Of a stretch of DNA of 32,000 bases, positions 5,652 to 9,440 are shown in pieces. Both the position numbers and the translations under genes were made by a program. The notes below the pieces were generated by a model. The model had not been told where the DNA came from and did not search any database. It saw nothing but the letters and a program-made list of their open reading frames with translations. This stretch comes from Limisalsivibrio acetivorans (lineage in GTDB: Bacteria > Chrysiogenota > Deferribacteres > Deferribacterales > Geovibrionaceae), in the NCBI RefSeq assembly GCF_000421105.1, contig NZ_ATWF01000001.1:328668-360667 (forward strand). The letters run 5' to 3'. Position 1 is the first letter of the stretch, and each line of letters opens with the position of its first letter.

Positions 5652-6335
5652 TTGAGCTACACTAGCATGGAAGACGCACACCTTACATACTACAAACTGA
5701 TGGATGGCCTTGAAAGCCTGCTCAATATCGGTTCGGGGAAGGTTCTTGATCTTTCATTCAATGATTTTGTGACAGCACGGCACATGGTCGACAACAGAGG
5801 GGTTCATGAGGTCCGATCGGTATCGGACATGAAGGTTATCTGTTATCCCGGCATAGAAGCTGTTCGTATAGATAGGAACCTCTCCTACACTATCAGGAGG
5901 ATGCGGGCAGACACCATAGTATCCCTGGGCGGTTCCTTCCGGTTCCAGCCGATACACGACGTTATGTACTCAATCCATGGCTGCCTCTCCGTTGGGGGGA
6001 GGGTGCTTATAGCGGTTTATCCCGGTCTCTACAACATGAAAGGTAAGGATATGCTTGCGGCATATAGCGCCGGCTCAGGTATCCCTGTCGCAGAGAAGCT
6101 ATCTAGATGGCACAAAACCGTATTTAACACGATCTCAAACCTCTTTGTTAACGTGAAGCAGGAAGAGGTTATCATGGACACCGACCCTGGTGAGGTCATG
6201 GCCCTTTTCTCCTCGGACTGTTTCTACCGCTATCTCTTCCGTGATTCAGCGGATTACGACAAGTTCTTCTCCCTCATCGGGGAAGAGAACCGCTATGTTC
6301 TCTCATGGAAGGTTATTAACGCTCTTAAGGTATAA
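5652..6335 (+). CDS. Hypothetical protein, class-I methyltransferase-like fold with a degenerate SAM loop
   Basis: A 227-aa ORF with a TTG start 6 nt after GAGGAG. GKVLDLSFNDF sits where VLDLGCGTG would be. ADTIVSLGGSFRF and LSVGGRVLIAV resemble MTase post-II/III motifs. The family assignment is tentative. Confidence 0.45.
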   Translation: MSYTSMEDAHLTYYKLMDGLESLLNIGSGKVLDLSFNDFVTARHMVDNRGVHEVRSVSDMKVICYPGIEAVRIDRNLSYTIRRMRADTIVSLGGSFRFQPIHDVMYSIHGCLSVGGRVLIAVYPGLYNMKGKDMLAAYSAGSGIPVAEKLSRWHKTVFNTISNLFVNVKQEEVIMDTDPGEVMALFSSDCFYRYLFRDSADYDKFFSLIGEENRYVLSWKVINALKV

Positions 6336-6857
6336 TTATTTCCGGCGGTCGAGATATATGTTCTTATACATAACGTACCTGTCGGCGTAGTCACGAATCC
6401 CCTTTATATCCTCCGCACTCAGCTCCTTAACAACCTTGGCCGGGCTACCCATTATCAGCGAACCTGCGGGATATTTCTTTCCCGGAGGGACAAGACTGCC
6501 TGCGGCAACTATGCTGTTTTCGCCGATAACGGCGTCATCCATAACAACGGAGCCGATGCCCACTAGGACGTTGTTCTCAATGGTGCATCCGTGAAGGGTT
6601 ACGGAGTGGCCTATGGTTACAAAATCCTTCAATACTGTGGGGTAGGTATCCTTCGTGACATGGATCACAGAACCGTCCTGTACATTGGAGCACTTCCCGA
6701 TGGAGATCTTCTCCACATCACCCCGGATAACCACGCTGTACCATACACTGCTGTCGTCCCCTAATTCCACATCTCCAATGACAACGGCATTGTCAGCAAC
6801 AAAAACACGTTCGCCGTATTCGGGCCCCTTATCAAGTCTCCTGATGATGTTATCCAT
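6336..6857 (-). CDS. Gamma-carbonic-anhydrase-like / hexapeptide-repeat (LbH) protein, YrdA/PaaY family
   Basis: Left-handed beta-helix repeats are present (VIGDVELGDDSSVWYSVVIRGD, IGKCSNVQDGSVIH, IGHSVTLHGCTI). The track begins at GTG 6860. ATG 6857 lies 7 nt after AGGAGG (rc of 6865-6870) and is the likelier start. Confidence 0.85.
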   Translation of the reverse strand: MDNIIRRLDKGPEYGERVFVADNAVVIGDVELGDDSSVWYSVVIRGDVEKISIGKCSNVQDGSVIHVTKDTYPTVLKDFVTIGHSVTLHGCTIENNVLVGIGSVVMDDAVIGENSIVAAGSLVPPGKKYPAGSLIMGSPAKVVKELSAEDIKGIRDYADRYVMYKNIYLDRRK

Positions 6858-6877
6858 CACTTAACCTCCTAGCATGT

Positions 6878-6894
6878 ATGCGTTATTAACGCAT
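6878..6894. promoter_or_regulatory. Perfect 8-1-8 palindrome ATGCGTTA-T-TAACGCAT, candidate operator
   Basis: Read directly from the sequence. It lies 8 nt upstream of the SD of the gamma-CA-like gene, in the divergent intergenic region shared with the XRE-cupin regulator. Confidence 0.35.
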
Positions 6895-7020
6895 TCTCAT
6901 AAATGAATTATCTCAATTAAAATAACACACTATACAAAATAGTCCATCTGTTAAAGTAATAATCATTGTAAAGCATTTAGTATCCTCATTATTAAAGTTT
7001 GCATTTAATTAACGAAAAAC

Positions 7021-7051
7021 TTGACTTTATCACGATGTTTTAATATATAAT
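7021..7051 (+). promoter_or_regulatory. Sigma-70-like promoter for the XRE-cupin regulator
   Basis: TTGACT (7021-7026) is followed after 17 nt by TATATA (7044-7049), or after 19 nt by TATAAT (7046-7051). Confidence 0.5.
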
Positions 7052-7065
7052 ATAAATTAAGAAAA

Positions 7066-7623
7066 ATGAATATAGCGAGGAAGCAAATGGGCTATGGAAC
7101 AAAACTCAGGGAGATTCGTAAGAAGCTGGGGATGACACTCGAGGATATTTCCCAGAAAACCGGCTTTACCAAGAGCTTTATAAGCCAGATTGAGAATGGA
7201 AAGAACTCCCCCTCTATCGCATCCCTTAAAAAAATATGCTATGCACTCGGCACAACCATAAGCGAGCTCTTCGAAGACGAACGAAATATTGTTAACATCT
7301 TTAAGTACGAGGACTATAACGTACTTAAAAACAAAAGTATAACTATGACCTTCCCCGCATCCAAGCTGGTTAACAGGAAGCTTGAGCCGATTATTATCGA
7401 GCTCGACCCCTACAGCGAAACAGGCTCAGAGAGCTATCAGCACATCGGTGAAGAATTCGGCTACGTGCTTGAGGGTGAGATGAGTGTTGTTATCGGCAAC
7501 GAGGAGCATAACCTCAAACAGGGTGAGTCCATATACTTCAGTTCAAACCTTCCTCATAGGATAAGAAACCGGAATGATAAGCCCGCAAAGGCTTTTTGGG
7601 TGGGTACGCCGCCTAGCTTTTAA
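7066..7623 (+). CDS. XRE-family HTH transcriptional regulator with C-terminal cupin domain
   Basis: The HTH_3 segment is LREIRKKLGMTLEDISQKTGFTKSFISQIENGKNSPSIASLKKICYALG. The cupin segment is HIGEEFGYVLEGEMSVVIGNEEHNLKQGESIYFSSNLPHRIRN. ATG 7087 (MGYGTK), preceded by GAGGAAG, is probably the true start. Confidence 0.85.
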   Translation: MNIARKQMGYGTKLREIRKKLGMTLEDISQKTGFTKSFISQIENGKNSPSIASLKKICYALGTTISELFEDERNIVNIFKYEDYNVLKNKSITMTFPASKLVNRKLEPIIIELDPYSETGSESYQHIGEEFGYVLEGEMSVVIGNEEHNLKQGESIYFSSNLPHRIRNRNDKPAKAFWVGTPPSF

Positions 7624-7639
7624 TATGATTTGGGAAAAA

Positions 7640-8026
7640 TTCCATCCATGGAAGCCTTTGATTTATCTGGGAAATTCATCATCCTGAGAATTTCCCTGCT
7701 GCTACGCTTGGCAAAGCCTTCGCTTCGCTTACTTCCATATATTTTATGAAGCGGAGCTTAATAAAATATATTTCAGGGCTCCCATCCATGGGAGCCTTTT
7801 ATACATCAACCTCAAATTTTTTTTCTAAATGGGTTTTTAAGGGGTTCCTAAGGGGAAAGTTTTCCCTAAAAATTTCCCCTTAGTCTTAATTTTATCTATG
7901 GAGTTTACCATCCATGGAAATCCCATTGTTGTTCGGGCAGGGAAACCCTGCCCTCTCGCACTTCCGGCTGCGTCAGATCAGCAGAGCTGTTCTTCCTTTC
8001 GCCTACAGAGCCAACATCCGTGTTGG
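7640..8026. repeat. Series of inverted-repeat hairpins with covarying stems and a conserved ATCC(A/G)T centre
   Basis: Four hairpins share the conserved centre: 7640-7653 TTCCAT-CC-ATGGAA, 7777-7796 GGCTCCC-ATCCAT-GGGAGCC, 7904-7920 TTTACC-ATCCAT-GGAAA (imperfect), and 8011-8026 CCAAC-ATCCGT-GTTGG. They are interleaved with 7669-7696 GGGAAATTC-(10 nt)-GAATTTCCC, 7848-7883 CTAAGGGGAAA-(14 nt)-TTTCCCCTTAG, and 7935-7953 GGGCAGGG-AAA-CCCTGCCC. Confidence 0.75.
7777..7802 (+). terminator. Possible intrinsic terminator for plus-strand transcripts (XRE-cupin gene)
   Basis: A 7-bp GC-rich stem GGCTCCC/GGGAGCC with loop ATCCAT, followed by TTTTAT. It is the same structure as one hairpin of the array, so its role is ambiguous. 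Confidence 0.35.
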
Positions 8027-8430
8027 ACTTAATTAATCTGGGAAATTCCATAGATTTAATCGGTAGCTATAACGTTTACACTTGAGAGAAAACAACGTGA
8101 GACGTGAAGCGGTTTTTCGTTAAGCAGGTGACTAGTAGCCAATAATCTGTTTAGCTAATAACCCTCTTAATCTTCCCCGAATGTTTTACAGCCGAATAAG
8201 CTCTTTTGGAACCGCCCGGAAGTTTTGGCCGCACGTGACAGACGAGGTAATCTTAAATATTGAATACATTCATGAATGATATGCGTTTACACTCCTCAGC
8301 ATCAGCAAAACTTCAGGTGGAAAAAGAGTGAAATGAGGGCACCGCCATCACTTACGAATTTATGAATATAAATGAGTAACAATGGGGGCTGGAAAACCCT
8401 GAGGGAATAGTTTTGCATACTTTTGCGACA

Positions 8431-8486
8431 AAAGTATGGCGTGCTTTAGCACGAAACACATAAATATGTGACTTATTTCGAATATT
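8431..8486. repeat. Direct repeat copy 1 (~55 nt)
   Basis: aaagtatggcgtgctttagcacgaaacacataaatatgtgacttatttcgaatatt aligns by eye at roughly 80 percent identity with 8576-8630. Confidence 0.7.
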
Positions 8487-8497
8487 AGTATGAAAGC

Positions 8498-8538
8498 AAA
8501 AAAACGCAGGGAACTTTTTAGGGAACAAAGTTACCCGC
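8498..8538 (-). terminator. Possible intrinsic terminator on the minus strand
   Basis: The minus-strand RNA reads GCGGGUAAC-(15 nt loop)-GUUCCCUGCG followed by UUUUUUU (A-run 8498-8504 on plus). The stem has one mismatch or bulge. It lies about 210 nt downstream of the stop of the 8751-9440 gene. Confidence 0.4.
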
Positions 8539-8575
8539 ACCCCTCAAAAACCCTTATTAGGAATAAATTGCGCTT

Positions 8576-8630
8576 AAAGATATGGCGTGTTTTAGCGGAA
8601 AACATTAATCTGTGAATTATTTCGTATTCG
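8576..8630. repeat. Direct repeat copy 2 (~55 nt)
   Basis: aaagatatggcgtgttttagcggaaaacattaatctgtgaattatttcgtattcg is homologous to 8431-8486. A third partial copy of the tail (cattatcgaatatgaaatacaaaaac) lies at 8691-8716. Confidence 0.7.
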
Positions 8631-8750
8631 ACGATGTAAAGAATAAGACTAAGGGGAAGTTTTCTCTGAAGATTACCCTTCGTTAATTTTCATTATCGAA
8701 TATGAAATACAAAAACTAGCGTCTGAGTTAGATTATAAGCATAAAATATA

Positions 8751-9440
8751 TCAATCCCCTGTCTGCCGTCTGCTGTAGTCCCTCAGCACGGCTGAGAAAC
8801 GTCCTTGCTCATCAGTAACATTCTGGCGGATTGGCACAAAACCCAGCTCATCCTCTGCTATCCAGATAGCGCCCTTGTTTACCTCACTGATAAATGTGAG
8901 CATGCAGACAGTTGTGAAATCGGATCCTAGTCGGCCAGACTCGTTTTTGATATGTTTGAATGTGTAGTTTAGTAATTTAAACTCTTCGAGCTTGAATATT
9001 CTGTAGTCCTTTGCTTTGCCCGTTCCGCATAGTTCACTGCCGGGTGTACCCACACTGAGGCTGTCGTATTCATCGGGCTTGAGTGTCTTTGAACCGCCCG
9101 GATTGGACTGAACCAAGTAGTTTGCGCCCTCACGTTCTGCTGTAACAGAGCGTTCATCACCATCCAGCCTGAGGCTTCCGCTGTAGCGGAGAAGACCGTT
9201 TTCATCGAAGACGCTTTTCTCCTCAAGGAAGAAGCTGATCTCGTTGAACATATCCTTCTTTTTTACGTTTATTACTTTTTCGTGACGGACTATGCCATCT
9301 TCTCTGGAGCGCTTGAAGGTGAATGAGCCGAGATGCACATTATCTGAGTATACATCGTAGGTGGATTCGATAACAACATCCTCCTCGGCGAAAAGGGGGA
9401 GGGCGATGAACATAACGATAATAAACAGTAATCTTTTCAA
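8751..9440 (-). CDS. Hypothetical exported protein
   Basis: A 229-aa ORF with a TTG start 8 nt after GGAGG. It has an N-terminal signal peptide (MKRLLFIIVMFIALPLFAEE). I recognise no family motifs. Confidence 0.6.
   Translation of the reverse strand: MKRLLFIIVMFIALPLFAEEDVVIESTYDVYSDNVHLGSFTFKRSREDGIVRHEKVINVKKKDMFNEISFFLEEKSVFDENGLLRYSGSLRLDGDERSVTAEREGANYLVQSNPGGSKTLKPDEYDSLSVGTPGSELCGTGKAKDYRIFKLEEFKLLNYTFKHIKNESGRLGSDFTTVCMLTFISEVNKGAIWIAEDELGFVPIRQNVTDEQGRFSAVLRDYSRRQTGD

Follow-up and report, generated by a model that had tools for sequence, protein, structure and literature searches.

To our knowledge, FliW is the only established general antagonist of CsrA outside the Gammaproteobacteria, and an mRNA leader of Campylobacter jejuni is the only RNA titrator described there. 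The small RNAs (sRNAs) CsrB/CsrC and RsmX/Y/Z of the Gammaproteobacteria display many GGA motifs in hairpin loops, in units arranged in tandem. Interspersed repeats of the REP/BIME, ERIC, BOX and Correia types are short, structured, lineage-specific elements that lie only between genes, are transcribed with the adjoining genes, stand alone or in clusters, break assemblies and mark points of rearrangement; what REP-type repeats conserve is the sequence of the stem itself. CsrA has a preference for GGA displayed in hairpin loops, systematic evolution of ligands by exponential enrichment (SELEX) having given the consensus RUACARGGAUGU (PMC4347634), and high-affinity apical hexaloops carry CANGGANG (PMC4894983). 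In the FliW-type bacterium C. jejuni, CsrA binds between operon genes too, and an mRNA leader with two GGA hexaloops, that of flaA, titrates the protein (PMC4894983). Here we analyse an array of six hairpins at positions 7640-8026 of a 32-kb stretch of the genome of Limisalsivibrio acetivorans (the window; coordinates count from its first letter). The array appears to be what is left of copies of a module that shares the traits listed above with the Csr/Rsm RNAs and with the interspersed repeats: to judge by its sequence, it resembles REP/BIME in distribution and a Csr/Rsm RNA or the flaA leader in display, being a member of neither group, and a new function for interspersed structured repeats is possible.

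The six hairpins were located exactly where the initial annotation had placed them, at the start of an ORF-free spacer of 1.1 kb (7624-8750) that separates a plus-strand gene for an XRE/cupin regulator from a minus-strand DUF6134 gene (ORF, open reading frame). All of them share one orientation: GGA is on the minus strand, which converges with the XRE gene and has the direction of the DUF6134 gene. On that strand five of the six display A(N)GGA and four (8026-8011, 7920-7904, 7796-7777 and 7653-7640) display CANGGANG, the first of these as ACACGGAUGU, and CAGGAUG is present in one loop, that of 7696-7669, all as annotated. The GGA noted as the conserved feature of the loops holds as well, also across the family described below, except that the loop of 7883-7848 carries AGGGA, not A(N)GGA. 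The count of 16 GGA triplets on the minus strand of 7624-8075 was correct, but such a density is no evidence in itself, since 452-nt coding stretches in the window reach 16-19.

The clustering of hairpins in the array is far beyond chance. Three exact copies of CCATCCATGG stand within 276 bp, and the rest of the 32 kb has none. Hexaloop hairpins of the NTCCNT/ANGGAN type, of which the array holds three perfect and one imperfect example in 387 bp, occur elsewhere with a perfect stem about once per 30-40 kb, and there only within ORFs. The segment 7630-8040 folds better than every shuffle on both strands (z = -5.5 for the minus and -5.0 for the plus strand), these scores being too alike to decide between the strands; the hairpins at 7920-7904 and 7653-7640 are thermodynamically marginal when taken alone (z above 0).

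The array led us to a family of modules. The intact module is about 113 nt long and comprises, in this order on the GGA strand, hairpin h2', linker GCGCCGUGCGNAGCGAAG, hairpin h1', linker CGCGAGCGUGU and hairpin h0'. A stem of 7-8 bp closed by C-G and a hexaloop A-N-GGA-N make up h2', linker GCGCCGUGCGNAGCGAAG holds a 3-bp mini-hairpin, h1' has a stem of 5-6 bp and a free loop, and h0' has an A/U-rich stem of 10-12 bp and the loop (A/G)CAGGA(N)G(U/C). Read on the UCC strand, the order is h0 (loop CATCCTG or CATCCATG), ACACGCTCGCG, h1, CTTCGCTNCGCACGGCG and h2 (loop NTCCNT). Scanning metagenome contigs with a pattern built from the two conserved linkers only, we obtained 34 loci: 28 contigs of assembly OBLN01 plus six chance matches in GC-rich coding DNA. 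One of these contigs, L079, is almost the same as the XRE locus of L001, the locus of the closest relative, so the assembly contains an organism like that of L001. Built from 33 copies, a covariance model (R1; 113 positions, 28 base pairs) gave 49 matches at E <= 0.01, all in L001, in L002 (the other of the two closest relatives) or in OBLN01 contigs, and none in ORFs. The OBLN01 contigs carry more than 45 module copies, spread over about 30 unrelated intergenic sites, and intact copies score 90-120 bits, as against 23 for the best copy of the window. A module usually starts no more than about 20 nt after the upstream stop codon and ends 15-40 nt before the next start codon (in the GGA sense), and the downstream gene keeps its own Shine-Dalgarno sequence.

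Copies occur singly or, often, in tandem; the largest array, of four copies, has a 94-nt period (L071), and L002 has 3.5 copies. Modules are often at contig ends. At L072:9430-9701 the tandem duplication takes in about the last 35 nt of the upstream gene (...GAAATCCGCCATGCGCCAGAAGTCTTAA), which indicates that arrays grow by local duplication of a module together with its flank. In 25 loci of other genera the model gave no match except a weak one in L004, and it located no second module site within the 32 kb of the window. The L004 match belongs to a tandem array of 2 x 123 nt (L004:8723-8968) between the stop codon of a gene and a cheW-like gene, a distant cousin with linkers of its own and an h2'-like hairpin GGCAC-AGGAC-GTGCC (AGGAC loop), suggesting that each Deferribacterales lineage has its own repeat variant. 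Rfam gave no match at gathering score for the window or for seven module-bearing loci, and nothing relevant, including any Csr/Rsm family, up to E = 10 for 7400-9000; the module pattern had 0 matches in viral contigs, and a literature search of limited coverage returned no paper describing the module.

The structure and the loops of the module are under selection. In a model-fitted alignment of 38 copies, 96.7% of the 1044 pair cells are paired, versus 67% in shuffles and 35-49% in controls in which the partner was slid; compensatory changes affect 23 of the 28 pairs, with 304 double-change cells versus 85 in shuffles. An alignment made with MAFFT and analysed with RNAalifold agrees, 25 of 28 pairs showing double changes. 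Twenty linker and loop columns are invariant while the stems differ at nearly every position between copies; A(N)GGA is found in 33 of 35 h2' loops and in about 37 of 38 h0' loops, and the h1' loops, which vary freely, serve as an internal control. In most loops GGA is followed by U, the nucleotide found there in CsrA sites, and not by the G of Shine-Dalgarno sequences, true examples of which nevertheless occur in the loops of some copies (CAGGAGG in L082 and L083). Subfamilies with related stems exist within the family. The covariation on which the initial annotation had relied involves only four stems within the window, but it is massively borne out by the homologous family in the relatives, and with it the proposed selection on hairpin structure. 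Likewise, the loops match published CsrA/RsmE sites as had been claimed, both in the CANGGANG hexaloops and in RUACARGGAUGU (PMC4894983, PMC4347634).

Double changes are also seen in two small helices within the linkers. One is the 3-bp mini-hairpin CGC-CGU-GCG (columns 34-42 of alignment A1), with a G-C to A-U double change in three copies, and the other a 2-bp helix that encloses h1' (columns 45-46/71-72), with one C-G to U-A change; these helices hint at a folded core beyond the three hairpins. A GCGNAGC mini-hairpin (GNA triloop) in the linker is disfavoured, because the same G-C to A-U change supports CGC-CGU-GCG instead. Three further candidates were rejected: a small ORF from the AUG in AUGGAUGG, as this AUG is missing from many copies; a promoter from the TATTAA box after h0', for which there is no -35 element at a suitable distance; and a hammerhead-type or other known ribozyme, which has no Rfam support.

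Of 28 sites that are informative in this respect, about 25 have the GGA strand pointing the same way as the flanking genes (binomial p about 3e-5); three, the XRE-panB site (L001, L002 and L079), L059 and L060, do not. At six sites (L066, L068, L070, L072, L076 and L078) the module follows the local gene against the contig majority, and in L078 two module sites flip with their genes. Orientation thus follows the local gene and not the contig majority, which indicates that the constraint acts on RNA, and a replication-strand bias was rejected as the cause. Lying in mRNA sense on the GGA strand, modules would be transcribed as part of mRNAs. Among non-Watson-Crick cells on this strand, G-U pairs outnumber A-C pairs by 20 to 7 (p = 0.02), a count taken from an alignment that had itself been fitted on the GGA strand. 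The orientation bias and these counts make the GGA strand, the minus strand in the window, the likelier one to act as RNA. The recurrence of the unit at unrelated intergenic sites, which had been proposed as the mark of a REP/MITE-type DNA repeat (MITE, miniature inverted-repeat transposable element), was largely observed, the unit being part of a module at about 30 such sites beside housekeeping genes in relatives, though not randomly in both orientations.

Comparison with related loci places the array at a discontinuity. In 17 of the related loci the panB promoter and a conserved leader lie within 40-130 nt of the XRE gene, on its 3' side, and in other genera, where the XRE gene abuts this promoter, the spacer is absent; the panB operon, 3' of the XRE gene in these 17 relatives, is missing from the window. 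Additional sequence 3' of the XRE gene is found only in the two closest relatives, L001 and L002, where it consists of the repeated module, in copies that are also partly decayed. Synteny between the window and L001 ends exactly after the XRE gene, at the repeat array (7624 onward versus L001:6538 onward). The spacer of the window has no counterpart in 20 related loci, and blastn of the spacer against all fetched loci matched a 22-nt hairpin in L001 and L002 but nothing further, and nothing in OBLN01 contigs, so that the homology of the modules is visible only through the covariance model. As to conservation at homologous loci, the spacer is thus not conserved in the relatives, while the GGA loops are nearly invariant across the dispersed family. 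Array size turns over rapidly between L001, L002 and L079. To judge from these comparisons, the array marks a rearrangement breakpoint in the window, and its six hairpins would come from about 2.5 degenerate modules, as their h2' and h0' hairpins. Since the orthologous site has the minority orientation and is partly decayed there too, we regard the window array as probably a relic, with residual activity at most.

We give an even chance to the reading that a lineage-specific interspersed repeat of the Deferribacterales has left the array behind as a decayed tandem cluster, about 2.5 modules with additional fragments, and that intact modules of this repeat putatively tether or titrate CsrA. The h0' loop, CAGGA(N)G, is equal to the reported repeat of CsrB. 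That loop, ACAGGAUGU, compares with the SELEX consensus RUACARGGAUGU, and h2', when it has a 7-bp stem, takes with its C-G-closed A-N-GGA-N hexaloop the CANGGANG form (PMC4894983). Binding of CsrA to the module loops is plausible, being predicted from this exact formal match to published sites. The two exposed A(N)GGA loops of each module would be high-affinity sites for a CsrA dimer, through which modules would tether or titrate CsrA on the mRNAs that carry them. A module would also set the GGA-containing Shine-Dalgarno sequence of the next gene within bridging distance, h0' lying 25-45 nt from it, and h0' together with that sequence would form, by analogy, the classical two-site arrangement. 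Collectively, modules may serve as a CsrA sink. CsrA and FliW are present, and BarA/UvrY absent, in Denitrovibrio acetiphilus and Calditerrivibrio (PMC4682653, supplementary file 4). The nearest parallel is the flaA leader of C. jejuni, where A-N-GGA-loop hairpins, two per unit, are likewise embedded in an mRNA, where target and sink of CsrA have been proposed to coincide in an organism without Csr sRNAs, and where CsrA binding between operon genes is documented. The flaA leader, however, is a single conserved 5' untranslated region (UTR) with a spacing of 21 nt and its second site over the ribosome-binding site (PMC4894983), whereas the module looks mobile, has a spacing of 62-73 nt and stands upstream of unrelated genes with their own Shine-Dalgarno sequences.

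Several points weigh against this reading. The genes that adjoin modules are unrelated housekeeping genes (proB, guaA, skp, purD, der, cca and a DEAD-box helicase gene), which looks like selfish spread and not like a regulon. Within a module the two GGA are 62-73 nt apart, reportedly at or beyond the range over which one dimer can bridge two sites, and the invariant linkers are left unexplained by CsrA binding. The site homologous to that of the window is one of the three in minority orientation, the window copies score 23 bits or less with model R1, and the G-U count carries the limit given above. Finally, the presence of csrA in the genome of the window is assumed from its relatives; tblastn for CsrA, FliW and flagellin in 820 kb of fetched genome sequence gave no matches, which is uninformative, as these are fragments only.

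If the CsrA reading were true, a repeat each unit of which carries two consensus CsrA hairpins would give a global post-transcriptional regulon a new means of growth and buffering. Possible, though rather unlikely, is the bolder version in which modules are mobile CsrA-recruiting cassettes, the repeat having spread high-affinity hairpin pairs into intercistronic and untranslated parts of dozens of mRNAs, wiring unrelated genes to CsrA and supplying, collectively or through tandem arrays like that of the window, the RNA sink so far missing in FliW-type bacteria. The family lends itself to testing, as it lies on the sense strand of many mRNAs, sometimes amplified in tandem, and offers concrete candidates in model R1 and the intact copy L052:40-152(-). 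Even without a CsrA partner it would be an unusual bacterial interspersed repeat, with free stems, frozen loops and linkers, and an orientation that tracks transcription. More modestly, the window itself probably holds a degenerate relic at a breakpoint instead of a gene dedicated to an sRNA; what is of interest is the family to which the array led.

The main rival, which we consider unlikely, is a selfish structured DNA repeat (REP/BIME-like or a hairpin-transposon) without RNA function. Loops and linkers would then be signals for a mobilising enzyme, paired stems would be needed for mobilisation as single-stranded DNA, the orientation bias would result from the purging of a harmful UCC-sense orientation inside transcripts, and the window copies would be dead. 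Dispersal beside unrelated housekeeping genes, tandem arrays, a frequent position at contig ends, lineage specificity with the rapid turnover of array size between L001, L002 and L079, the subfamilies of related stems and the decayed copies at the breakpoint all fit this explanation, as do TA-rich flanks, which are frequent but show no strict duplication. Unlike in REP-type repeats, however, the stems of the module are hypervariable with compensation while loops and linkers are invariant, and no palindrome is shared. Terminal inverted repeats are lacking, as the two ends of the module (5' arm of h2' and 3' arm of h0') are not complementary, and this, together with TA-rich flanks that lack a strict target duplication, also separates the module from a MITE. 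Neither a RAYT nor any other transposase was seen near any copy, and tblastn with an approximate IS200 TnpA (Y1) query was empty in the 820 kb, a weak test. An orientation bias that follows local transcription, here 25 to 3, is not expected of REP, ERIC or Correia-type repeats. The selfish repeat would also leave unexplained the coincidence of both conserved loops with the CsrA consensus, and the excess of G-U over A-C on one strand points to RNA or to one specific single strand. An RNA-level element might also act through something other than CsrA: another loop-binding protein, 30S subunits that Shine-Dalgarno-like loops hold as a standby or stabiliser element, an RNase processing module or an unrecognised ribozyme with the linkers as its core. 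The 20 invariant columns and the small covarying linker helices, unexplained by CsrA loop binding alone, speak for such a partner, together with the orientation that tracks transcription and the true Shine-Dalgarno sequences in the CAGGAGG loops of L082 and L083. Yet the nucleotide after GGA is mostly U, C or A and not the G of GGAGG, no ribozyme or other Rfam family matches and no specific candidate partner can be named, and we consider this the least credible of the explanations, highly improbable as it stands.

The remaining alternatives concern the window locus and go back largely to the initial annotation. A stand-alone CsrB/RsmZ-like sponge sRNA at 8026-7640 on the minus strand, with a promoter near 8066-8095 and a terminator at 7653-7635, is improbable. 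If the minus strand is transcribed, five hairpins show A(N)GGA within about 390 nt; this strand folds slightly better, CsrA occurs in relatives, and a sponge could plausibly arise by amplifying a CsrA-binding module in tandem. But a consensus scan, which is no proof of absence, finds no sigma-70-like site on the minus strand of 7624-8750, including the proposed promoter at about 8066-8095, and the supposed terminator (7653-7640 plus UUUUU), with a 4-bp stem, was unflagged by the terminator scan. Two of the six hairpins lack stability of their own, the modules are degenerate beside the intact copies of other loci, the locus is conserved in no relative, no Csr/Rsm family of Rfam matches, and BarA/UvrY, which drives such sRNAs, is absent from Denitrovibrio. 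The module also differs from CsrB/RsmZ in that it is dispersed in mRNAs at dozens of sites instead of forming a dedicated gene, has no similarity to Rfam families or models and no promoter or terminator of its own that could be found, occurs in a phylum that uses FliW and lacks BarA/UvrY, and adds invariant non-GGA linkers and a third hairpin to each unit. Of the sponge interpretation, then, the CsrA-type loops and the selected structure stand, and the dedicated gene is not supported. More improbable still is a plus-strand reading, as the 3' UTR or terminator region of the XRE gene or as an anti-Shine-Dalgarno sRNA with UCC loops, in which 7777-7803 (GGCUCCC-AUCCAU-GGGAGCC followed by UUUUAUA) would act as terminator. 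The UCC strand is indeed co-directional with the XRE gene in the window, L001 and L002, the first hairpin lies 17 nt after the stop codon, and 7777-7796 is a stable GC-rich stem followed by four U. The loops in this sense, UCC or UCCU, recall the complementarity of RsaE/RoxS and LhrC to Shine-Dalgarno sequences, and LhrC genes are also in tandem. Against this, about 25 of 28 sites have the UCC strand antisense to the adjoining genes, the GGA strand shows fewer A-C mismatches than G-U pairs, the loops read AUCCAU or CAUCCUG instead of runs of UCCC, and the copies are dispersed. The claimed terminator at 7777-7802 fares no better, as the terminator scan did not flag 7777-7803 and the h2 of other copies has no U-tract in the UCC sense. 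The orientation of the family thus disfavours an anti-Shine-Dalgarno role, and at the window site the plus strand may still be part of an XRE 3' UTR.

The features of the array and its neighbours are compiled in Table 1.

Table 1. Positions of the array features and flanking genes in the window. Coordinates written with the higher number first run 5' to 3' on the minus strand; R1 is the covariance model.
Feature	Position	Strand	Evidence and remarks
XRE-HTH/cupin regulator gene (HTH, helix-turn-helix)	7087..7623	+	Pfam HTH_3 and Cupin_2; stop codon borders array
Hairpin fragment UUCC-AUGGAU-GGAA, h2'/h0' type	7640..7653	-	Sequence; R1 at hairpin level only, 6.0 bits; fold z = +0.8
Direct repeat TTGATTTATCTGGGAAATTC	7658..7677	+	Repeat family D6, 90% identity; second copy 8029-8048, 371 nt off
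Sole recognisable module, degenerate	7667..7796	-	cmsearch with R1, filters off: 23.2 bits, E = 3.9e-5; fold z = -5.4
h0', loop UCAGGAUGAU	7696-7669	-	Within module 7667-7796
h1' GGC-UUU-GCC	7720-7712	-	Within module 7667-7796
Linker remnant GCGAAGCGAAGG	7730-7718	-	Within module 7667-7796
Inserted 35-nt hairpin, 16-bp A/T-rich, ATATATTTTATGAAGC-GGA-GCTTAATAAAATATAT (GGA triloop on plus strand)	7771-7737		Between linker and h2
h2' GGCUCCC-AUGGAU-GGGAGCC	7796-7777	-	Within module 7667-7796
Module remnant without linkers and h1'	7844..7934	-	R1 6.4 bits, E = 1.6, suggestive only
h0'-type hairpin, loop UUUUUAGGGAAAAC	7883-7848	-	In remnant 7844-7934; fold z = -2.7
h2'-type hairpin UUUCC-AUGGAU-GGUAAA, one mismatch	7920-7904	-	In remnant 7844-7934; fold z = +1.1
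h1'-type hairpin GGGCAGGG-UUU-CCCUGCCC	7935..7961	-	Comparison with family consensus; in minimum-free-energy folds of both strands
h2'-type hairpin CCAAC-ACGGAU-GUUGG	8011..8026	-	R1 at hairpin level, 3.6 bits; fold z = -2.2
DUF6134 gene	8751..9440	-	ORF, Pfam DUF6134; same direction as GGA strand of array; array about 720 nt downstream of gene

The match of the module at 7667-7796 to model R1 carries a 49-nt insertion and a shortened linker and h1' region, and outside it the hairpins of the window match the model only at the hairpin level, with E above 1. Most linker sequence has been lost from the window copies: compared with the family linkers GCGCCGUGCGNAGCGAAG and CGCGAGCGUGU, GCGAAGCGAAGG (7730-7718) and AAGCGUAG are kept, and the remainder is lost or replaced. 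A linker remnant also adjoins the hairpin at 7935-7961 (plus strand TCTCGCAC, compare CTTCGCTNCGCAC of the family). The hairpin at 7640-7653 has a broken lower stem, whose remnant pairs through G-U on the minus strand only, and the direct repeat at 7658-7677 resembles the joint between modules, TTAATCAATAAAC...GGGAAAC, of the L002 array.

The closest homologues of the XRE/cupin protein are found in metagenome-assembled genomes of Deferribacterales and Denitrovibrio (89-79% identity). Its ORF is listed from the ATG at 7066, but homologues align from residue 8 and an independent Logan gene call gives 178 aa, which places the true start at M8, position 7087. In the relatives, the conserved panB leader (GCTTGGATCC..GGACCGAGAC at L003:6540-6604) has the same position 3' of the XRE gene in L001-L021; it is absent from the window. 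With RF01749, the pan motif of Rfam, it reaches 34.1 bits where 36.2 is the gathering score, a narrow shortfall through which standard annotation would miss the motif in Deferribacterales. A short element of the type GTCATTCTGAACGCAGTGAAGAATCTC lies at L002:1003-1030 and L002:6385-6410, with similar sequences in the post-XRE spacers of L009 and L011; elements of this type recur beside module arrays and in spacers of other genera.

Two short Logan contigs of run SRR1797350 are identical to the window. One of them, L085 (SRR1797350_936), corresponds to 6314-7689 and ends inside the h0 hairpin at 7689, a hint, in an assembly that is fragmentary overall, of a unit repeated in the source genome. 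Between the array and the DUF6134 gene, the terminator scan detected a weak terminator-like hairpin at 8453-8440. It lies within a 146-nt tandem duplication at 8430-8720 (8430-8575 and 8576-8720; about 79% identity in the best stretch), which has no counterpart among the fetched loci; each unit contains a weak minus-strand terminator-like hairpin of this kind and a hairpin of the GGGAA...TTCCC type related to that at 7848-7883.

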